A DNA stretch of 36,907 nt, taken from the sequence record DRR723986_1799; one strand, 5' to 3'. A model generated the notes under the pieces. It made no database searches and had not been told where the DNA came from. It worked only from the letters and a program-made list of their open reading frames with translations. Of this stretch, positions 7,843 through 15,704 are shown in pieces. Each line of letters begins with the position of its first letter. Position 1 is the stretch's first letter. Both the position numbers and the translations under genes were made by a program.

Positions 7843-10752
7843 ATGACATCCACTCCCATTTTTATTTCCTATGCTCGAGAGGATTCCGAGTGGGTGCAAA
7901 CCATCAGCGCAAGTCTGGCCGACAAAGGTATCCAAGCCTGGGTCGACACCAATGCACTTGACTACGCCAGCTTGTGGCAGGAGGAAATCGAAGATGCCAT
8001 TCTCAGGGCTCAACTTGTGGTTGTGTTGGTCACCCCTCATTTTCTGGAATCGGTGGCTTGCCGGTTTGAGGTAGAACGTGCCGAGCGTTTGCGTAAACGT
8101 CTGTTACCCGTTATAGACAGCCGGGTTGAAGAGCATCAGATTCCTGCGGCTTTAAACGCCTATCAATGGTTCAAGCTGGACCGCGACACTGACCGTACAA
8201 GCACTGTAGCGAGTTGGATAGAACGCAGCATGAAGCTCGATCCTGACTGGCTTAAACGTCATACCGACCTGACGAGCCGTGCGCAACAATGGGTTAACAA
8301 CAGCAAGGATCCCAGCCTGTTGCTTCGAGGAAAAGATTTGGCATCGGCCCAAGCCATGCTTGCGCAATCCAATCAGAAAGACAAACTGTTAGGCAGCGAT
8401 TTGATCGAGATGATCGCTGTGTCGGACCAAACCCAGTCGCGCCGTCGAATGACGCTGGCTGGCTTCCTGGGCGGCAGTGTGTTGGCTGTGATCACAGCGG
8501 CCTCATTTGCTTATGTGCAGCATGTTCAGGCCGAAGGGGAGGCCAAATCGGCACTACGCAATCGATTGAACCAACTGGCCATGGCCGGCGATTTGTCCGG
8601 CATGCTGGACACTGCCAAGGCCAACGCCGCGCGGCTCGCAGAAGACCCTATTGCCAGCTTGCAAGTTCGCCTGTTTCAGGCGGAATCCCTGTCAACCAAT
8701 CTCGAAATGAAAGCCTATGAGGTGGATTCACTGGAGGTGAAAGGCGATTGGGTAATGCTGCACAGTTTTTCATCAGGCGGACAGTTATTCAATCTTGACA
8801 AGTGGAATGAACCGCAAAGCACCGGCAATCTTTCTGAAGGCGACACTCACAGGGTCAGCCTATCGGATACAGGAAATCACCACGCAATCTGGACATCGAC
8901 ACAATACACAATCCGGTCCTCTTTAAAACCTGATCAAGGAACGCCGGTGATCGGAGTCAATGGGAACATTGAACACATCACATTGCTTGAACGTGCCGGA
9001 AAAATGGTGCTTCAGCAAGCCAACGGTTTTGCTGTGTATCCCTGGACACCAGGCCAGACAGCCCTGCCGCAAGCCATGTTGACAATGAGGGATGTACAGC
9101 TTCTGCGCGCCTTCTCGAATGGCGATCTACTTTATCGAAAACCGCCACAAACCGACGGACAGTACGAGGTTTGGATCAGCCGACAGGGCAATGACATGTT
9201 GCTGGGTCGGTTTAAAGGGCAACTGCGACAGGTGATGAAAAATCAGGATGAGGTGTTGGCCATGAGGGTAAAGCGAGAAGTTCATGGCTTTCAGTTAACT
9301 TCCGACAAAGGGCAATTCGATCCCTTGGGTAAAGTGTGGGTAGCCGATGAATCGGGTGTGGCCTTGTCCAACCATGGGCACAGCCTGGCTGTGGTCGACC
9401 CCAATAATGAAGCACGCGTGTTGTATTTCTCGCTCGAAGATGTGTTGGTGAGTGAAGGCAAGTCGCTTCGGCAAAACCCGGCGGCACTCAGGGACGATCT
9501 TCAGGAAAACCTGCAAGACTTGCGCAACGGTGCAATACAAATTGGTGAACTGCACCCGGTCTTTGACCAGGACGATAGCCGCCTGTTTGCTCCCGGCGAG
9601 TTCAATCGATCGCTGTCACCCATCAACGCCCAACTCATCGCCAGCATGGACTCCGAGCTGGGCACCGAGGGCGGCCTGTCTGACAACATTCTTCTTCTGG
9701 GTGATGGTGCTCAACACCTTCTGGGCCTGTCGCTGAATCATGGCGGCAACGGCACAGTCACCCTGCACCGCTTTTCAATTCCACAACGTTTGCAACAAGG
9801 CCGCACCAGTGCCATTGCCACCGCCCTTCGAGCAGACGATTCCGGTTTTCTTGCATTGCAACCCGGTGGGCAACTGGTGCAACAGGCCTGGATAGGCTCA
9901 CCCACCGCGCTTCAGCTTCCGGGGGTAGAAACCAGCAATACAACACTGGTGGCAGGCACCCTTTCAACTGCAGGTGATCGCGTTTGGGCAATCAACACAC
10001 AAGGTGAATTGCTGGCTTGGACCATTCAAGCGAACAAGGCCACGCTCAATTTCATACAGACCATTGACTTGGACGAGCTTGCAGAACTGAACCGCTTTCG
10101 CCCAATCAGTGTGTCACAGAGTGGTAAAAACCTGGTGCTGGTCAGCACACAAGGCTTGTTGCTTCTGGATGCCAACACAGGTAAAACCCGCTGCAAACTG
10201 GAACACATTGAGCAGTTTTATGATGGCATGGCCTATTTTTTGAATGAGCAAACCTTGATCAGTATCGATATGCTGTTCACCAATGGAACAGGTTGGGAGA
10301 ATCGGCGAATTCAAGCCTTTGATGTGGAGAAATGTTCACCCATCGAACATTTTGCCATGCAAGCCGAACTTCAGGACAACGATGGTTTTGAAACCGGTTT
10401 TGGCTTTGGCATTCAAACCGAACTGGGCGGTGCGCCATGGATCGCCGATCGCCGCTTCGGGGCCAAGTACAGAATTCGAGACATTCAAACCGGCAACACA
10501 TTGGGCGCTTTGTCGAATCACAGTGGGCGAGTTCTGGCTCTTCGATCTCACCCACAAGCAGACTTGCTTATCAGCAGCGACGAGCTAGGTTCCATCAATC
10601 TGTGGGAAACCAGCACGCTGCGCCGAATCAAAACGCTGGATGTACCACAATGCCAGGCCATCGACCTTGCGCTTAACAACACCGGCAGCCACCTGTTGGC
10701 ACGCTGTGCCAGCGGGCAAGCCATATGGTGGGCCATGGGCTCGCAATCATGA
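7843..10752 (+). CDS. TIR domain - single TM - WD40-like beta-propeller protein
   Basis: 969 aa. TIR motifs FISYAR.D, AWVD, W.EEIE.AI and S.ACRFE (catalytic-position E76); LLLRG.DL..A helical linker; RRR then hydrophobic aa 203-225; beta-rich C-terminus with a clear WD40 repeat LSNHSGRVLAL..HP..DLLISSD..GSINLWE. Confidence 0.85.
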   Translation: MTSTPIFISYAREDSEWVQTISASLADKGIQAWVDTNALDYASLWQEEIEDAILRAQLVVVLVTPHFLESVACRFEVERAERLRKRLLPVIDSRVEEHQIPAALNAYQWFKLDRDTDRTSTVASWIERSMKLDPDWLKRHTDLTSRAQQWVNNSKDPSLLLRGKDLASAQAMLAQSNQKDKLLGSDLIEMIAVSDQTQSRRRMTLAGFLGGSVLAVITAASFAYVQHVQAEGEAKSALRNRLNQLAMAGDLSGMLDTAKANAARLAEDPIASLQVRLFQAESLSTNLEMKAYEVDSLEVKGDWVMLHSFSSGGQLFNLDKWNEPQSTGNLSEGDTHRVSLSDTGNHHAIWTSTQYTIRSSLKPDQGTPVIGVNGNIEHITLLERAGKMVLQQANGFAVYPWTPGQTALPQAMLTMRDVQLLRAFSNGDLLYRKPPQTDGQYEVWISRQGNDMLLGRFKGQLRQVMKNQDEVLAMRVKREVHGFQLTSDKGQFDPLGKVWVADESGVALSNHGHSLAVVDPNNEARVLYFSLEDVLVSEGKSLRQNPAALRDDLQENLQDLRNGAIQIGELHPVFDQDDSRLFAPGEFNRSLSPINAQLIASMDSELGTEGGLSDNILLLGDGAQHLLGLSLNHGGNGTVTLHRFSIPQRLQQGRTSAIATALRADDSGFLALQPGGQLVQQAWIGSPTALQLPGVETSNTTLVAGTLSTAGDRVWAINTQGELLAWTIQANKATLNFIQTIDLDELAELNRFRPISVSQSGKNLVLVSTQGLLLLDANTGKTRCKLEHIEQFYDGMAYFLNEQTLISIDMLFTNGTGWENRRIQAFDVEKCSPIEHFAMQAELQDNDGFETGFGFGIQTELGGAPWIADRRFGAKYRIRDIQTGNTLGALSNHSGRVLALRSHPQADLLISSDELGSINLWETSTLRRIKTLDVPQCQAIDLALNNTGSHLLARCASGQAIWWAMGSQS

Positions 10753-12593
10753 ACCCTTTGGCACAAGAAGTAAAAAGCCTGATCGGCAAAGGCGAGTTCT
10801 TCAAGGCTTATGACATCGCGTTGCAAGCGCTGAACAGCGACCCCGACAACACGGTCCTGAAACACCGCGCATTGCTGGCGCTGGCCAATGCAGGAGCATA
10901 TCAGCTGGCACTTTCCCAATTCGAAAGCATGGGCCTGCATAGTAGCCGCGAGCTGGACGTGCAATGCCTGTTGGCTCGCCTGCACAAGGACATGGGATTT
11001 GCGCAAACAGGCAAGGCGGCCCAAGCCAGTTTTTCAACTGCATTTCAACTGTATGAGCGGGCCTGGCACACACACCGGCTTTCGCCGCTAGCCTACTACC
11101 CTGCCATCAACGCAGCCGCCTGCGCAGTGTTTTCAGGCGCCCCTGACCAGGCCATACACTGGGCAGGCATTGTATTGAATCAACTTCAAAGCCAGCACAC
11201 CACGCCATCTGACCGGGTGGAACAATACTGGGTTAACGCCACACACATCGAAGCTTTGCTGATTCAGGGGCAATTGACATCTGCGCGTGCATTGGTACCA
11301 CACACACTGTCACTCCTCGGTTCAGACCGAACCGCGCTGGCATCCACACTTCGACAGCTTCAACGCCTATGCATTTGTCTGGGGCATGATTTCAAAAGCC
11401 TTGGTTTTGCTGCACCTCCCACTGTCATTCACTACACCGGGCACTTGCTCAGCCCCACCGGGCGTTTTCCAGCCCATCAGGAAGCACGGGTGGCCACACA
11501 AATCCAAGCACTGCTCGAATTGCACAATGTGGGCGTTGGCTACGGTTCACTGGCCGGTGGCGCAGACATTCTGTTTGCAGAAAGTTTGCTCCAGCGCGGC
11601 GCCGATCTTCATGTGGTGCTGCCTTTTGAGCAAGAAGATTTCTTGAACGTGTCGGTAATGCGTTGTGGCTCACACTGGGCCGAGCGGTTCGAGCGCTGTT
11701 TGAGTGCTGCTCGCAGCGTTCGAATGGCAACCGACGACGCCTACTTGCAAGACGAACAACTGTTTACCTACTGCAGCCAAATTGCCATGGGCTTGGCCAT
11801 ACTGAACGCCCGGCATTTGAACACCACAGTGGCCCAAATTGGCGTGTGGGACGGGCACACCCACGACACCGATGTGGGCACCGAAGCCGACCTGCAACAA
11901 TGGCAATACACCGGTCTGCCGCAGTATCTTGTGAACAGTCAAAATGCCTCTTTCAGCCAAAGCTTTCCAGCCAGCCCGGCCGAAGCGTCCCCCACACGCA
12001 GCAACACCAAACAACACGGCCGCGAAAGCAAAGCCATGCTGTTTGCCGACGTGAAAGGTTTCAGCAAGCTGGGCGATGCCGCACTGCCTGCATTTGTAGA
12101 GCACATCATGGGGCGTTTGGCCCAAGTAACCGCCCAGCACAATCATCAACTGCACAGCATCAACACTTGGGGTGATGGCGTATTCGCTGTGTTCAACAAC
12201 GTGGCTGCCGCAGCCGAATGTGCCCTGGCCATGCAGGAAATCATGGCAGGAATTGATCGAATCGCTCTTGGATTACCCGAAGAATTGGCCTTGCGAATTG
12301 GTTTGCACCTGGGCCCAGTGTATTTAACCCTGGACCCCATCACCCTTCGCGAGACCGCCATTGGTGCACATGTCAGCCGTGCTGCGCGAATTGAACCGGT
12401 TACGCCGGAGGGCTGCGTGTACGTTACCGAAACCTTTGCCGCAGTTTTGGCCATTGGCAGCCACAATGAATTTGCCTGCGACTATGTGGGGCAAACCGAA
12501 GCAGCCAAAAACTATGGCCTGATGCGCATGTTTTTATTGAGAAGAACCGGGAACAGCAGTGCGACTACTGTGGTGCTGAATTTTGAGAGATAA
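10749..12593 (+). CDS. TPR-sensor (TRAF-binding/DUF4071-like), SLOG-like domain, class III nucleotide cyclase
   Basis: 614 aa from an ATG overlapping the upstream stop (ATGA). TPR-S motifs LARLHKD, YYPAINAA, YW..AT..EA.L, ST.RQL; SLOG-like YTGH...GSLAGGADILFAE...HVVLPF...WDG; cyclase LFADVKGFSKL, WGDG, LRIGLH.GP, G.HVSRAARIEP. Confidence 0.85.
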   Translation: MNPLAQEVKSLIGKGEFFKAYDIALQALNSDPDNTVLKHRALLALANAGAYQLALSQFESMGLHSSRELDVQCLLARLHKDMGFAQTGKAAQASFSTAFQLYERAWHTHRLSPLAYYPAINAAACAVFSGAPDQAIHWAGIVLNQLQSQHTTPSDRVEQYWVNATHIEALLIQGQLTSARALVPHTLSLLGSDRTALASTLRQLQRLCICLGHDFKSLGFAAPPTVIHYTGHLLSPTGRFPAHQEARVATQIQALLELHNVGVGYGSLAGGADILFAESLLQRGADLHVVLPFEQEDFLNVSVMRCGSHWAERFERCLSAARSVRMATDDAYLQDEQLFTYCSQIAMGLAILNARHLNTTVAQIGVWDGHTHDTDVGTEADLQQWQYTGLPQYLVNSQNASFSQSFPASPAEASPTRSNTKQHGRESKAMLFADVKGFSKLGDAALPAFVEHIMGRLAQVTAQHNHQLHSINTWGDGVFAVFNNVAAAAECALAMQEIMAGIDRIALGLPEELALRIGLHLGPVYLTLDPITLRETAIGAHVSRAARIEPVTPEGCVYVTETFAAVLAIGSHNEFACDYVGQTEAAKNYGLMRMFLLRRTGNSSATTVVLNFER

Positions 12594-12611
12594 ACACAAG
12601 GCTGCCAACCA

Positions 12612-13052
12612 ATGAATGCATTAATGAACAATACCTTCCGCGCACAATGCCAATGCGGCCAATTGATGGTTAACTTTACCCAAGCGCCAGTCGCACAGTT
12701 GGTGTGTCATTGTCGGGATTGCCAAACCGTGAGTGGCATGCCGTATGCGAAAGCCGCTTTTTTCAGAGCCGAAGAGCAATGCGCACAAGGCGAATTTCTG
12801 GCGGTTGACATGACAGGCGGCTCAGGCAAACCCAAGCAATACCGCCGATGCAGCCAGTGCAACGATTTTGTTTATGCCACAGTGGATGCGCTGACTGGCC
12901 TGTTGGGTGTGGCTGCAGACAAACTGGAGCCGCCCTTTGAGTTCAACCCCATGGCCCATGTGTGGACCAGCGAGAAGGCACCCGAGACGGAAATTCCTGC
13001 AGGTGTATTTCAGTTTCCCAAAGCACCACCGTTCAGGCCAGGCAAACAGTAA
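12612..13052 (+). CDS. GFA/CENP-V family Zn-binding protein
   Basis: CQCG, CHCRDC and CSQC motifs, P.AHVWTSEK; alternative start at 12624. Confidence 0.88.
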   Translation: MNALMNNTFRAQCQCGQLMVNFTQAPVAQLVCHCRDCQTVSGMPYAKAAFFRAEEQCAQGEFLAVDMTGGSGKPKQYRRCSQCNDFVYATVDALTGLLGVAADKLEPPFEFNPMAHVWTSEKAPETEIPAGVFQFPKAPPFRPGKQ

Positions 13053-13054
13053 AT

Positions 13055-13085
13055 AAAAAAGCCTCACATTGCTGTAGGCTTTTTT
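13055..13085. terminator. Bidirectional intrinsic terminator
   Basis: AAAAAAGCCTCACA-TTGC-TGTAGGCTTTTTT hairpin flanked by A and T tracts, between the GFA stop and the tRNA 3' duplicate. Confidence 0.8.
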
Positions 13086-13087
13086 GT

Positions 13088-13132
13088 ATTTGGCTCCCCG
13101 ACCTTGACTCGAACCAGGGACCTGCGGATTAA
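13088..13132 (-). repeat. att-type direct repeat: duplicated 3' half of tRNA-Asn
   Basis: Matches 15626-15670 at 44/45 positions (T13105 vs G15643); runs from the anticodon loop TTAA through CCA plus 3 flanking bases. Confidence 0.92.
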
Positions 13133-13221
13133 AAGGCTGAGACTAAAACGCCACAAATCAATAACTCGACACCCCGAAATTCTCGCAGTATCAATTTTTT
13201 TCCTCTGTAAGAAACCGCATG

Positions 13222-13390
13222 GACTGACTGCATCGACCATAAAACCGACGACTTGTGTTTCTTCACCCAACAGAGCTTCAAGAATGACTACACAGGTACG
13301 TCGATTGATTTCTGTTTCTTCCTGCCCCAACCGTGCGCTTAAATCCACCACGGGCACCACTGCTCCGCGCAGGTCGATCATCCTTTAATT
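13222..13390 (-). pseudogene. cheW: cheW internal fragment
   Basis: IDLRGAVVPVVDLSARLG....RRTCVVIL.......VGFMVDAVS is the CheW core. Both termini are missing and the upstream I-K-G codons are one base out of frame. Confidence 0.8.
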
Positions 13391-13493
13391 CACGGTGAAT
13401 CGCATGAACACTGATTCAGCGTGATTTGAAGAAGAAGAAAAGACACGCAGTAAACTGAATAAACAGCACTTTAGATATTTCTGCTTGTGAAAT

Positions 13494-13524
13494 AAAAAAG
13501 GTCTGTGCTTTCGGCACAGACCTT
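13494..13524 (-). terminator. Intrinsic terminator of the desaturase gene
   Basis: 11-bp stem AAGGTCTGTGC/GCACAGACCTT followed by a U tract on the minus strand. Confidence 0.8.
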
Positions 13525-13556
13525 GATTCAGATTGCTCCCCTACTGAAGCAAAAAA

Positions 13557-14444
13557 TCAATTAGTTGTCACTGGCTTGCGACTGAAAACTCCGACAATTG
13601 GGGTGCCCTGGGCTCGCAAAACAGGTTCTATTTCACGGTGAAGAGCGTGATAATGATAAAAAGGCACTCGCGGGAAAAGGTGATGAATGGAATGTAAGTT
13701 CTGACCCAACCACAGCCACTCGAGAGGCTTCATCCACCTGGGCATGATCAAACTGTTGGTATTTTGGTAACGTGCCGATTGTTCATAAGGATGATGTGGG
13801 CGGTAAGCAAACCAGTAAGCTGTAAAAAATGCACCGAGCAAGTAGCCCAATACAAGCAGCACTGCGACCTCTGAAGTACCCACCCAGACACCGTACAACA
13901 CTCGCCAAGCGACCATAAATATCACCTCAGTGACGTAAAGAATTTTGTCTTTCAGGCTGCTGGTTTTCCAATGGTCACGAAAAAGAAAAGTAACTTGCAC
14001 CCAAAGAAAATGAAAACCGCTCGCGATGAAGGAAAAAAAACCATGCCCCATATCACGGACTACATAATCCGGATCTTTGTCGGGTTGATTGGTGTAGCGA
14101 TGATGGGTGAAATGTTCAAGCTTGTGGGTTGAATAAGGCACAAAAATCAAGGACGCCGCCAGATAGCCACACAGACTATTCAGCCATTTCAAGGCGTCCC
14201 CATCCCCACCAATGTTGTTATGAACAGCCTCGTGCAAAGGCGTATACGACATGTAAGTGAGGGCTGCGTAAATTGGCATGGCCACCCAAAGCGAGAGACC
14301 ACCACTTGCGAACACAGCAAGCAAAACATACATTGAACACAACACGAACACCACCAAGACAACCGTTCCCCAAGCAGTTGCACCCGTGTATTTTTTCGAG
14401 GCCATGATGGCCTGCCTGTTCAACTGCTCCAAATCTGCCTGCAT
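13557..14444 (-). CDS. Membrane fatty acid desaturase / carotene hydroxylase-like protein
   Basis: Three His boxes HEAVH, HFTHH, HSIHH followed by LFPRVPFY; TM helices; GGAG RBS. Confidence 0.88.
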   Translation of the reverse strand: MQADLEQLNRQAIMASKKYTGATAWGTVVLVVFVLCSMYVLLAVFASGGLSLWVAMPIYAALTYMSYTPLHEAVHNNIGGDGDALKWLNSLCGYLAASLIFVPYSTHKLEHFTHHRYTNQPDKDPDYVVRDMGHGFFSFIASGFHFLWVQVTFLFRDHWKTSSLKDKILYVTEVIFMVAWRVLYGVWVGTSEVAVLLVLGYLLGAFFTAYWFAYRPHHPYEQSARYQNTNSLIMPRWMKPLEWLWLGQNLHSIHHLFPRVPFYHYHALHREIEPVLRAQGTPIVGVFSRKPVTTN

Positions 14445-14546
14445 GTGCCTATCTCCATTTGTTTCATTGTTGTGATACTTTCAATCTAATGTCGTGCCGA
14501 ACCTTCCAACAGGGCATTTCAGGTCTTTGGAACCTCATTTCTGGCC

Positions 14547-15572
14547 ATGAAAAATCATTTAATGCACCCAGCCACCATTGCTCAGGTGATGGTAAATTTC
14601 GCAAATCGATTGGGAATCGACGCTCAAGGCTGTTTGATGGGCTGCGGCATCTCTCTGGAAGACTTGTCACAACCAGACACGTGGCTGAGTCGAAGCCAGG
14701 AAATACAACTGATTGAAAATCTGCTCACTCACTTGCCTGACAAACCCGCGCTGGGATTTGAGTTGGGAATGCAATACAACCTGGCCACATTTGGAATATG
14801 GGGCTTTGCCATTCGCACTTGCCCAACTTTGGCAGACGCGATCAAACAAGCTTTGCGATACCTGCCGCTCAGCACAGCGTACTGTCGTTTCTCCACATTC
14901 CAGACCAGTGAAACACTCACCATCACGGCAGACCCGAGCGCCATTGAACCCCACTTACAACAATTCCTACTCGAACGGGATTTGGGCACAACATTGCAGC
15001 TACTCGGAGAGATGGGTCTGCATGGCATCCCTGTTAAAAGACTGGAATTCACAAACCTGCCAGAAAGTCACCTAGCCCGGATTGAGGAATTGACAGGAAT
15101 ACAGCCAAGCAGCGGGTGCCCAATGAATGCGATTGTGCTTGACAGGCGAATGACAGAATTGACGCTGCCAACCCACGATGCTCACATGCTTCGTGTGTTT
15201 GAAGATCAGTGCGCCAGACAACTTAAGATGCGACAAGTGGACGGTGTGGCGGGCCAAGTTCGTCAACTTTTGCTGGGTTCTCTTGGAATGACTTGTTGCC
15301 TCGAGGATGTCGCGTTGGCACTGGCGCTTTCCCCTCGCAGCTTGCGCCGAAAACTGAATGCTGAGGGTCATTCATTTCGCGATGTGCTCGAAACAGAACG
15401 CAAACAACTTGCCACACATTTGTTGTTGTCGCAGTCAATGACTCAAGATGAAATGGCCCTGCATCTGGGCTACAGCGACACTGCAAGCTTTACACGTGCC
15501 TTTCGTCGCTGGTATGGGTGCTCGCCCGGAGAATATCGGCGAAACCAGGCGAACTCGATCTTGACTGCATGA
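14547..15572 (+). CDS. AraC-family regulator (OruR/VirS-type N-terminal domain)
   Basis: LGFELG......FGIWGFA...CPTL and double HTH SPRSLRRKL...LGYSDTASFTRAFRRW.G.SP.EYR; divergent from the desaturase. Confidence 0.92.
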   Translation: MKNHLMHPATIAQVMVNFANRLGIDAQGCLMGCGISLEDLSQPDTWLSRSQEIQLIENLLTHLPDKPALGFELGMQYNLATFGIWGFAIRTCPTLADAIKQALRYLPLSTAYCRFSTFQTSETLTITADPSAIEPHLQQFLLERDLGTTLQLLGEMGLHGIPVKRLEFTNLPESHLARIEELTGIQPSSGCPMNAIVLDRRMTELTLPTHDAHMLRVFEDQCARQLKMRQVDGVAGQVRQLLLGSLGMTCCLEDVALALALSPRSLRRKLNAEGHSFRDVLETERKQLATHLLLSQSMTQDEMALHLGYSDTASFTRAFRRWYGCSPGEYRRNQANSILTA

Positions 15573-15584
15573 CGGGATAAAAAC

Positions 15585-15612
15585 AAAAAGGCCAACTCGT
15601 TAAAGTTGGCCT
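15585..15612 (-). terminator. Terminator downstream of tRNA-Asn (may also serve araC)
   Basis: AGGCCAACT-N6-AGTTGGCCT stem with a U tract on the minus strand. Confidence 0.75.
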
Positions 15613-15628
15613 ATATGCTTACTGAATT

Positions 15629-15704
15629 TGGCTCCCCGACCTGGACTCGAACCAGGGACCTGCGGATTAACAGTCCGTCGCTCTACCGACTGAGCTATCG
15701 GGGA
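15629..15704 (-). tRNA. tRNA-Asn (GTT)
   Basis: 76 nt TCCCCGATAGCTCAGTCGGTAGAGCGACGGACTGTTAATCCGCAGGTCCCTGGTTCGAGTCCAGGTCGGGGAGCCA, full cloverleaf with encoded CCA. Confidence 0.98.

Follow-up and report, generated by a model that had tools for sequence, protein, structure and literature searches.

The window, meaning here the whole analysed stretch of 36,907 nucleotides from record DRR723986_1799, carries two overlapping open reading frames on the plus strand, followed by a third co-oriented gene. The first (7843-10752, +) encodes a TIR protein of 969 aa. The second (10749-12593, +) encodes a protein of 614 aa with TPR-S, SLOG and class III nucleotide cyclase parts and is referred to as the cyclase gene. 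Read directly from the sequence, the ATGA at 10749-10752 is shared by the stop of the TIR gene and the start of the cyclase gene. An alternative start at the ATG at 10725 is given no support by the N-termini of homologues, and the ATG at 10749 was used. After a gap of 18 nt (12594-12611), also read directly, a gene for a GFA-family protein of 146 aa follows (12612-13052, +; Pfam GFA, E 3.3e-19). A hairpin with a U-run at about 13053-13087 (+) lies 3' of the GFA gene and is likely an intrinsic terminator. It folds with -14.9 kcal/mol (z -2.9), 2 of 200 shuffled sequences fold equally well, and a scan for consensus terminators missed it. The overlap, the short gap and the closing terminator thus agree with an earlier note on this DNA, which described the three genes as one operon next to an attachment-type repeat of a tRNA-Asn.

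Two other parts of that description had to be revised. A tRNA-Asn gene is present at 15629-15704 (-), and a copy of its 3' part at 13085-13135 is identical to 15623-15673 at 48 of 51 positions; matches of this kind occurred in none of 100 shuffles. Repeat and tRNA enclose 13136-15622, a 2.5-kb remnant with a CheW fragment, a desaturase and an AraC gene. The possibility that the repeat marks the border of an island containing the TIR and cyclase genes was ruled out, as the window contains no third copy at up to three mismatches and the two present enclose the neighbouring remnant. Since the repeat bounds this remnant, and an intact tRNA directly follows the GFA gene in the related locus L001, the link between the attachment repeat and the two genes was dropped. 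The surrounding genes encode an SDR, a TetR, a fatty-acid hydroxylase, a LysR, the desaturase, the AraC, an aminotransferase and UvrB. Such housekeeping flanks are found here and in most related loci.

The GFA gene is a core downstream neighbour and not a member of the module. It adjoins the cyclase gene in only 2 of 80 related loci, and in the nearest genome (G001) it occupies the same place with 96% identity while the TIR-cyclase pair is absent. No GFA gene lies beside the pair in L003, and an amidase gene separates the two in L001. Here, the GFA gene probably shares a transcript with the pair. Contigs from RNA libraries span the pair, in X1 as one 5.7-kb contig (7359-13053), and the pair was also found in those of X3 and X14, which makes three runs from two studies; such contigs can neither show transcription nor exclude carry-over of DNA. 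In the X14 contig, the depth is far higher over the GFA gene, the figure for this contig being a whole-contig mean.

The TIR protein has the predicted layout of a membrane receptor. Its TIR domain (aa 6-115; 7858-8187, +), predicted to be cytoplasmic, matches Pfam TIR_2 (E 3.9e-22), Pfam TIR (E 1.4e-4) and PDB TIR chains including AbTIR. E76 is aligned to the glutamate of 'NAD(+) hydrolase AbTIR' (8g83_A), in the column which we take to hold the catalytic residue of TIR NADases. This glutamate is invariant in 15 relatives of the full-length type and kept in 34 of 37 TIR partners of related cyclase genes. A single transmembrane helix is predicted at aa 205-223 (8455-8511, +) from its hydrophobicity (Kyte-Doolittle 1.86), and the charge of its flanks (+2 / -1, with RRR on the N side) suggests an N-in orientation. 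In the AF2 model, the pLDDT is below 50 at aa 202-224, within a long helix. Beyond the helix, a first beta-rich domain (aa 296-528; 8728-9426, +) is a probable propeller, predicted to be periplasmic, with strands throughout and a pLDDT of about 75-88 in the AF2 model. The middle parts of the protein, including this domain, have no Pfam match, and tandem-propeller chains align across aa 291-969 at high rmsd. The C-terminal part (aa 647-969; 9781-10749, +) is predicted to form a 7-blade WD40-type propeller. Using VIA-align, it matches Sec12 (4h5i_A) with Z 23.5, rmsd 3.3 and 296 aligned residues as well as about 50 further WD40 chains at Z > 20, and there are weak Pfam WD40-type matches at aa 876-964. 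The location of the propellers outside the cytoplasm is a prediction, because the transmembrane segment is of moderate hydrophobicity and WD40 propellers are for the most part cytoplasmic. Orthologues in L001-L003 have 81-84% identity, and 16010 library proteins are homologous at E ≤ 0.001, with the TIR domain and linker alone common to most of them.

The partner protein starts with a TPR-S helical repeat region (aa 1-218; 10749-11402, +), supported by Pfam TPR-S at aa 25-125 (E 3.1e-12) and a weak match to MAP3K_TRAF_bd (E 2.6e-5). It also matches the central regulatory region of ASK1 (5ulm_B) with Z 16.5, a value that is common for helical repeats. The following region (aa 223-402; 11415-11954, +) is predicted to be a Rossmann-like domain of SLOG fold. 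Its predicted model is most similar to YpsA (2nx2_A; Z 16.8, rmsd 3.2, 158/178 aligned), which ranked first of 48,161 chains, and further matches were DprA (3uqz_A, Z 12.3) and ShosA (8zva_A, Z 11.9). The assignment derives from one AF2 model with a mean pLDDT of 72.8, and of about 50-88 per 10-residue block in this domain. A profile of 67 sequences of the domain had no match among PDB sequences at E ≤ 10, a Pfam search with aa 215-402 at E ≤ 10 gave nothing but a chance glycosyltransferase match and no CMP-hydrolase type, and when the complete 614-aa model was run against the PDB with Foldseek, all matches were TPR proteins, leaving the middle domain unmatched. Many polar residues of the domain are invariant across the 67 sequences.

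The C-terminal domain (aa 427-596; 12027-12536, +) is a class III nucleotide cyclase (Pfam Guanylate_cyc, E 2.5e-12). D434, D476 and R547 are invariant in 15 sequences and align with solved cyclases, D434 and D476 with the metal-binding aspartates. The specificity columns are non-canonical: Ser occupies the Asn column, Asn the Lys/Glu column and Thr the Asp/Cys column. In such enzymes, Asn presumably positions the ribose, a Lys/Asp or Glu/Cys pair specifies the purine and Arg stabilises the transition state. The chemistry may therefore differ in this family, as Ser replaces the ribose-positioning Asn and is nearly invariant. The protein is unusually conserved, with 44-50% identity across phyla, and 116 of the 120 homologues listed, out of 762 at E ≤ 0.001, have both PF00211 and PF20308. 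For both proteins, every domain named in the earlier note was supported: the TIR with its glutamate, the transmembrane helix and the propeller by Pfam, the AbTIR alignment, hydrophobicity and predicted structure, and the TPR-S, SLOG fold and cyclase with both metal-binding aspartates by Pfam, the predicted-structure match and the alignment with solved cyclases.

Many unrelated genomes have genes of the TIR and cyclase families next to each other. The cyclase family was found at 425 loci in data with one genome per species, and 80 related loci were compared, with hosts including Limnobacter, Arenimonas, Arenicella, Nevskiaceae, Stellaceae, Actinomycetota and Acidobacteria. In 29 of these 80 loci, drawn from three phyla, no more than 600 bp separate the cyclase gene from a TIR gene, and in 35 a TIR ORF occurs within 7 kb. 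If only the 44 loci that extend 3 kb or more to either side are counted, a TIR is adjacent in 15 and present anywhere in the flanks in 19. The adjacent TIR genes are located upstream on the same strand (15), downstream on the same strand (7), on the opposite strand (5) or in overlapping frames (2). Adjacency by chance is estimated at about 1% or less, because each of the tested genomes with an unlinked cyclase has 4-25 TIR_2 genes, many of them in large proteins. When neighbours in the 80 loci were annotated, covering recurrent families and a few locus-specific genes, TIR was the sole family present in more than 11 loci. Other recurrent neighbours were ABC transporters, histidine kinases, enolase-type enzymes, SDR, GGDEF and DEAD helicase. 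No adjacent TIR is present in 51 of the 80 loci, and five such genomes have TIR genes elsewhere. At least one hydrophobic segment of transmembrane type was found in 31 of 37 partner ORFs. Beyond the TIR and transmembrane parts, the partner proteins differ (254-1066 aa), with WD40-type families in up to 10 and nSTAND1 in 8 of 40, and this variable remainder would suit a variable sensor. The earlier note had made its proposal depend on co-occurrence of the two genes elsewhere, and this is what was found.

Within the genus, the pair forms an accessory cassette of 4.9 kb, which occurs in 4 of 26 species genomes and as one decayed remnant. Its presence or absence amounts to a 4.9-kb indel between the LysR and GFA genes. 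The flank at the tRNA-Asn is variable: L003 has a fragment of an integrase there, and G012 a SoFic-like Fic gene. Relatives of the pair were found neither on 72,556 PLSDB plasmids (E ≤ 1e-30) nor in 50,697 INPHARED phage records (E ≤ 1e-10) nor on IMG/VR contigs. These negative results are weak evidence since the collections are biased. A defence-island, plasmid or phage context of the pair was not found, nor was a killing effector near it, and a cNMP-dependent effector is neither present nearby nor recurrent across the 80 loci.

We consider it slightly better than an even bet that the pair is a two-gene accessory signalling cassette with Thoeris-like logic and a cyclase as its output. The propellers would lie on the periplasmic side and respond to a cue from the envelope or from outside, which would bring the cytoplasmic TIR domains together. 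The clustered TIR domains would split NAD+ and release an ADP-ribose-derived messenger, which the TPR-S/SLOG part of the partner would bind. In the messenger-bound partner, the cyclase dimer would switch on and form a cyclic mononucleotide, the identity of which is not readable because the residues that specify it are non-canonical. This product may act on targets whose genes lie elsewhere, or the burst of synthesis itself may drain an NTP pool. The order from TIR through SLOG/TPR-S to cyclase is the most economical reading. A more general form, in which surface TIR receptors with variable ectodomains produce a NAD-derived signal for a conserved TPR-S/SLOG hub cyclase that makes a non-canonical cNMP, is tentative and falls somewhat short of an even chance; several unlinked TIR receptors may feed one hub.

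An anti-phage or other conflict role of the pair is somewhat favoured over its absence. The same chemistry could serve transmembrane signalling outside immunity, with periplasmic propellers that sense an environmental or envelope ligand, cAMP or cGMP acting on CRP-type or other housekeeping receivers, and possibly several unlinked TIR receptors converging on one cyclase hub. The housekeeping and regulatory flanks here and elsewhere point in this direction, as do the absence of plasmid, phage and viral-contig copies and of a nearby killing effector in the searches above, the strong conservation of the cyclase protein between phyla and the many TIR_2 genes in genomes with an unlinked cyclase. 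The same holds for a fused form, found in one cluster, that contains an MFS and a cNMP-binding domain and fits a genuine cNMP product. However, the patchy distribution in the genus with its decayed copy and the variable tRNA-Asn flank argue against such a role. Partners of nSTAND1 type are typical of conflict systems as far as the accessible text of the source describes them (PMC7159879), and the enzymatic bacterial TIR signalling systems in the portions of the literature searched are all immune. Taken together, a role outside immunity is unlikely, though it competes most seriously with the conflict role.

Another possibility is that the order is reversed, as in Pycsar and Pucsar. The TPR-S/SLOG/cyclase protein would then be the sensor and produce a cNMP, by which the membrane TIR protein would be activated as an NADase effector. 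The PADLOC PycC model matches the cyclase domain (E 1.1e-6), a faint CAP12-PCTIR_TIR match lies below the cut-off (E 0.068), and cyclases are paired with TIR or transmembrane effectors in Pycsar/Pucsar according to the accessible part of a preprint (bioRxiv 10.64898/2026.08.12.744502). The TIR effector described there has a cNMP-binding domain, but the predicted cytoplasmic part here consists of the TIR and about 70 aa of helical linker, where Pfam finds no cNMP-binding match, and the top 25 families in 40 partner proteins include none that binds cNMP. Moreover, the large variable C-terminal domain of the partner is what a sensor would be expected to have, and two domains of ADPR-sensor type are found in the cyclase protein, so that the reversed order is improbable. 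Still less credence is given to a model with no diffusible first messenger, in which the TIR is a protein adaptor bound by the TPR and clustering activates the cyclase by contact, or in which the SLOG domain is a nucleotide-processing enzyme. In its favour, peptides are the usual ligands of TPR repeats, the N-terminal region is similar to the scaffold region of ASK1, the ATGA overlap points to a coupling of translation, and many polar SLOG residues are invariant. Against it, an adaptor would not need the NAD+-cleaving glutamate kept in most partners, and the 51 cyclase genes with no TIR neighbour are easier to reconcile with a diffusible signal than with a fixed complex.

If the cyclase is indeed the output of the TIR-first relay, a NAD-derived signal would be relayed as a second messenger. 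To our knowledge, the experimentally known TIR signalling systems all work through a final effector that kills the cell or starves it. With a second messenger as output, amplification, integration of many sensors or transcriptional instead of suicidal responses would become possible. The two-messenger cascade, if true, would connect TIR/ADPR with cNMP signalling for the first time, and it would be the first bacterial example of a transmembrane receptor with a TIR as its output domain. In animals, TIRs are the cytoplasmic output of Toll-like receptors. The family is not rare, with its 425 loci and at least 762 matching protein clusters. As it is very conserved and has unusual substrate-specifying residues, it offers a direct test of the ligands of TPR-S and YpsA-like SLOG domains, of the cNMP made and of bacterial TIRs as the output of membrane receptors. 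The pairing of TIR and cyclase is widespread and may chain two small messengers.

The statement of the earlier note that no named system has this arrangement holds for the arrangement as a whole in PADLOC 2023, NCBIfam 2026 and full-text searches. It does not hold for the kind of system, since a TIR with a TPR sensor is in print as type VIII Thoeris, as far as the accessible text goes. None of these sources names a cyclase output for a TIR system, and the 29 putative types in Table S1 of the type VIII preprint may list one. PADLOC 2.0 gave domain-level matches only, ThsB and SAVED-TIR for the TIR and PycC for the partner, and recognised no system. Its ThsB models matched the TIR domain alone (E 2e-6 to 0.03), its ThsA models matched nothing in the pair, and the NCBIfam model of Thoeris type III ThcB4 scored 29.9 bits, where its cut-off is 220. 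With respect to Pycsar and Pucsar, as they are described in the available text, a class III cyclase beside a TIR protein and the proposed cNMP messenger are shared. In contrast, the steps here probably run the other way round, neither the TIR protein nor the GFA protein has a cNMP-binding domain by Pfam, and the cyclase carries TPR-S and SLOG sensor domains that are not part of the cyclases described for those systems.

TPR-S was reportedly proposed by Burroughs & Aravind 2020 (J Bacteriol) to sense NAD+-derived signals and to have been taken into the animal ASK signalosome. The partner resembles the TPR-S family (PF20308) and the ASK1 central regulatory region through its TPR-S, weak MAP3K_TRAF_bd and 5ulm_B matches, whereas the look-alikes in the Atlas are TPR-S proteins of 284-689 aa with no cyclase.

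In Thoeris, a TIR gene adjoins a gene for domains of the type that senses ADPR signals, and the pair has this gene arrangement by virtue of its TPR-S region and predicted SLOG fold. In type I Thoeris (ThsB with the SIR2-SLOG protein ThsA), the TIR product is bound by a SLOG domain, which turns on the enzyme fused to it, according to the accessible descriptions. The output of ThsA is NAD+ depletion by SIR2 instead of a cyclase, and TPR-S is absent from ThsA as described there. YpsA-like SLOG domains include cADPR sensors, as stated in the available part of a further source (PMC9503650). The closest validated relative of the pair is type VIII Thoeris, which in the accessible text of its preprint combines a ThsB TIR that makes canonical cADPR with a TPR-containing ThsI effector, the role of the TPR in TIR signalling having been predicted by Aravind and colleagues (bioRxiv 10.64898/2025.12.03.692087). 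As far as that text goes, both consist of two genes, one for a TIR and one for a soluble protein that starts with TPR and continues with a nucleotide-type Rossmann-like domain. Unlike there, the TIR is membrane-anchored with large propellers, and the Rossmann-like domain, for which Pfam has no match, appears in its predicted model closest to YpsA and thus to SLOG. ThsI, compared here by its description in the accessible text, joins a CMP hydrolase to TPR and has no cyclase, whereas a class III cyclase is added in the present pair.

The TIR gene (7843-10752, plus strand, 969 aa) and the cyclase gene (10749-12593, plus strand, 614 aa) share an ATGA at 10749-10752, as the earlier note had claimed, and the N-terminus of the cyclase protein read from the ATG at 10749 aligns with those of its homologues. 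The pairing recurs elsewhere. The cyclase protein family comprises 762 proteins with E <= 0.001, and the TPR-S and cyclase domains occur together in 116 of the 120 members listed. In data with one genome per species, 425 cyclase loci were found, and among the best 80 of these a TIR-domain profile (two rounds) detected TIR ORFs at 35, with 29 lying at most 600 bp from the cyclase gene. For the 44 loci whose flanks reach 3 kb or more on each side, the TIR gene was adjacent in 15 and present anywhere in the flanks in 19. All-against-all clustering of neighbouring ORFs showed that TIR is the sole family present in more than 11 of the 80 loci, followed by ABC transporters, histidine kinases, enolase-type enzymes, SDR, GGDEF and DEAD helicase families. 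The TIR gene is placed upstream, downstream, convergently or divergently, and the hosts include Beta-, Gamma- and Alphaproteobacteria, Actinomycetota and Acidobacteria. Since five genomes with a TIR-less cyclase locus carry 4-25 TIR_2 genes elsewhere, chance adjacency is estimated at about 1% or less; these genes also leave room for unlinked partners of the cyclase. The matches number five in G027 (locus L077), 25 in G028 (L037), four in G029 (L034), nine in G030 (L016) and four in G031 (L013), numbers of TIR genes that are uncommonly high for a bacterium, and many of these matches lie in open frames of 500-1400 aa.

The TIR domain of the 969-aa protein was identified with Pfam (TIR_2, aa 6-115, E 3.9e-22). 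Its Glu at the catalytic position, E76, aligns with the Glu of AbTIR, an NADase of solved structure, in agreement with the earlier note, and a Glu is kept there in 34 of 37 TIRs. A single hydrophobic segment (aa 205-223) is preceded by an Arg-rich and followed by an acidic flank, and because of the positive-inside rule the TIR domain is predicted to be cytoplasmic and the propellers to lie outside. The AF2 model (mean pLDDT 65.5) places the TIR domain, a helical linker with the hydrophobic segment and two beta domains in this order. The first beta-rich domain covers aa 296-528, followed by a low-confidence stretch (aa 533-654), and aa 647-969 align structurally with seven-blade WD40 propellers, best with Sec12 (4h5i_A, Z 23.5, rmsd 3.3, 296 aligned); WD40-type Pfam models match weakly at aa 876-964. 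Common to the partner TIR proteins are the TIR domain and, in 31 of 37, a hydrophobic segment. The rest is widely variable: at most 10 of 40 carry WD40-type propeller families, and 8 of 40 an nSTAND1 NTPase.

In the 614-aa partner, Pfam detected TPR-S (aa 25-125, E 3.1e-12) and Guanylate_cyc (aa 427-596, E 2.5e-12) domains and a weak MAP3K_TRAF_bd match. The SLOG-like domain that had been proposed between them was invisible to sequence-level methods, as neither Pfam nor a profile search against PDB sequences matched it; it is supported by the AF2 model (mean pLDDT 72.8), which was aligned against 48,161 PDB representatives. The top match was YpsA (2nx2_A), covering model residues 223-402 with Z 16.8, rmsd 3.2 and 158 of 178 residues; DprA (Z 12.3) and ShosA (Z 11.9) aligned to the same domain. 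YpsA and DprA are both included in the SLOG superfamily, as described in part in PMC9503650. The helical N-terminus resembles the central regulatory region of ASK1 (Z 16.5). Three residues of the cyclase domain, D434, D476 and R547, do not vary across 15 diverse sequences and align with catalytic positions of solved cyclases. The family carries Ser at a column where cyclases usually have Asn, and Asn and Thr at the base-specifying pair of adenylyl and guanylyl cyclases, and therefore the cyclase product cannot be named.

Two kinds of fusion were observed among related protein clusters. In ten clusters (P0271-P0280), an aromatic amino-acid (histidine) ammonia-lyase (HAL-like) domain lies N-terminal to TPR-S/SLOG/cyclase in one open frame, as at locus L029 (4796-8836). 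Since His-ADPR is a known Thoeris signal, this fusion may point to the ligand. In one cluster, P0281, an MFS transporter and cNMP-binding domains are fused to the TPR-S/cyclase core, suggesting that a single polypeptide holds both the cyclase and a membrane receiver for its product.

The outer limits of the unit had to be redrawn. A gene of the GFA family (12612-13052, plus strand, 146 aa) does start 18 nt behind the cyclase stop, and the proposed terminator was found 3' of it as a hairpin followed by a U-run at about 13053-13087 (-14.9 kcal/mol); an equally good fold arose in 2 of 200 shuffles, and a consensus scan for terminators did not flag it. In two studies, contigs of RNA libraries extend over the pair, including a single 5.7-kb contig (7359-13053), and such contigs cannot prove transcription. 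Membership of GFA in the module was rejected, as GFA homologues flank the cyclase gene in only 2 of the 80 best loci. Among the genomes compared, the nearest is G001, complete in one contig; it has no TIR/cyclase pair and shows the order LysR, 848 bp, GFA at 96% identity; judged by this gene order, TIR and cyclase form a 4.9-kb indel and GFA is a resident gene. Where the window has the pair, the 848-bp segment of G001 contains a 234-aa ORF (L081, G001:C1, 1540-2244, minus strand) without a match in Pfam or PADLOC.

The tRNA-Asn repeat, previously taken as an att site beside the unit, was likewise rejected as a cassette border. The only tRNA in the window is tRNA-Asn (ARAGORN, 15629-15704, minus strand). 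A copy of its 3' part occupies 13085-13135 and agrees at 48 of 51 bases; no similar match arose in 100 shuffles. At locus L001, which holds an orthologue of the TIR protein, an amidase gene lies between cyclase and GFA, and an intact tRNA-Asn directly follows GFA. At L003, which holds another, GFA is absent, an integrase fragment adjoins the tRNA and the TIR gene has on its upstream side the desaturase/AraC block that in the window lies between repeat and tRNA. Therefore, the repeat is a border not of the cassette but of an adjoining 2.5-kb remnant, which lies between this partial copy and the intact tRNA-Asn. The remnant (within 13064-15704) contains a truncated CheW-like ORF (13064-13381, minus strand, spanning positions 41-99 of the 138 in Pfam CheW) together with genes for a fatty-acid desaturase and an AraC regulator, and no integrase was found in it.

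A full-length orthologue was found in 4 of the 26 species genomes of the genus, and by this distribution the pair is accessory, located in a variable tRNA flank. In the genus relative G012, the cyclase gene is reduced to 3' scraps, pieces 90% and 78% identical, beside 9.5 kb of other cargo (L082, G012:C2, 2824-12590). This cargo includes an 821-aa ADP-ribosylglycohydrolase-domain protein, an FKBP gene and proteins of 875, 439 and 314 aa without a Pfam or PADLOC match; a Fic protein (SoFic defence model, 1e-12) lies between the cyclase scraps and GFA. This cargo may represent a further conflict cassette, again related to NAD/ADPR, that occupies the same hotspot.

Given the observed domains, conserved catalytic residues and conserved linkage, a Thoeris-like relay is probably the economical reading of the pair, for which we infer the topology, the ligand, the direction of signalling and the product. 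The variable C-terminal domain of the TIR protein would sense a cue, the TIR domains would then act on NAD+, the TPR-S and/or SLOG domain would read the product, and the cyclase would be switched on. No cNMP receiver is encoded near the pair; receivers might be located elsewhere, or the cyclase burst itself might be harmful through NTP loss. The same relay chemistry could serve physiological signalling instead of immunity, a possible but clearly less probable reading, which would fit the housekeeping flanks of the pair, the lack of relatives in the plasmid, phage and viral-contig collections searched, the missing killing effector and the strong conservation of the cyclase protein. A reverse order as in Pycsar/Pucsar is disfavoured and rather improbable, because the TIR effectors of those systems, as far as partly available descriptions go, hold a cNMP-binding domain, whereas none was seen in the TIR proteins here. 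That the cyclase is activated by contact, with no diffusible signal involved, or that the SLOG domain is an enzyme, is disfavoured as the least probable of these readings, because the Glu is conserved in the TIRs and many cyclase genes are unlinked to a TIR gene.

Among known systems, the Thoeris-like relay draws support from type I Thoeris, where the effector's SLOG domain is described, in the partial account available, as reading 3'cADPR, and from type VIII Thoeris, where a cADPR-making TIR is paired with ThsI according to part of a preprint (bioRxiv 10.64898/2025.12.03.692087). The earlier statement that no named system has this arrangement holds in part. PADLOC 2.0 and NCBIfam 20.0 gave domain-level matches only, and full-text literature searches, with a 29-type list of putative Thoeris systems outside their scope, found no paper describing a TIR partner that combines TPR-S, SLOG and cyclase domains. 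However, a TIR with a TPR-sensor effector is, going by the portions of the sources available, a kind already in print, and the pair is therefore best regarded as a variant of that kind.
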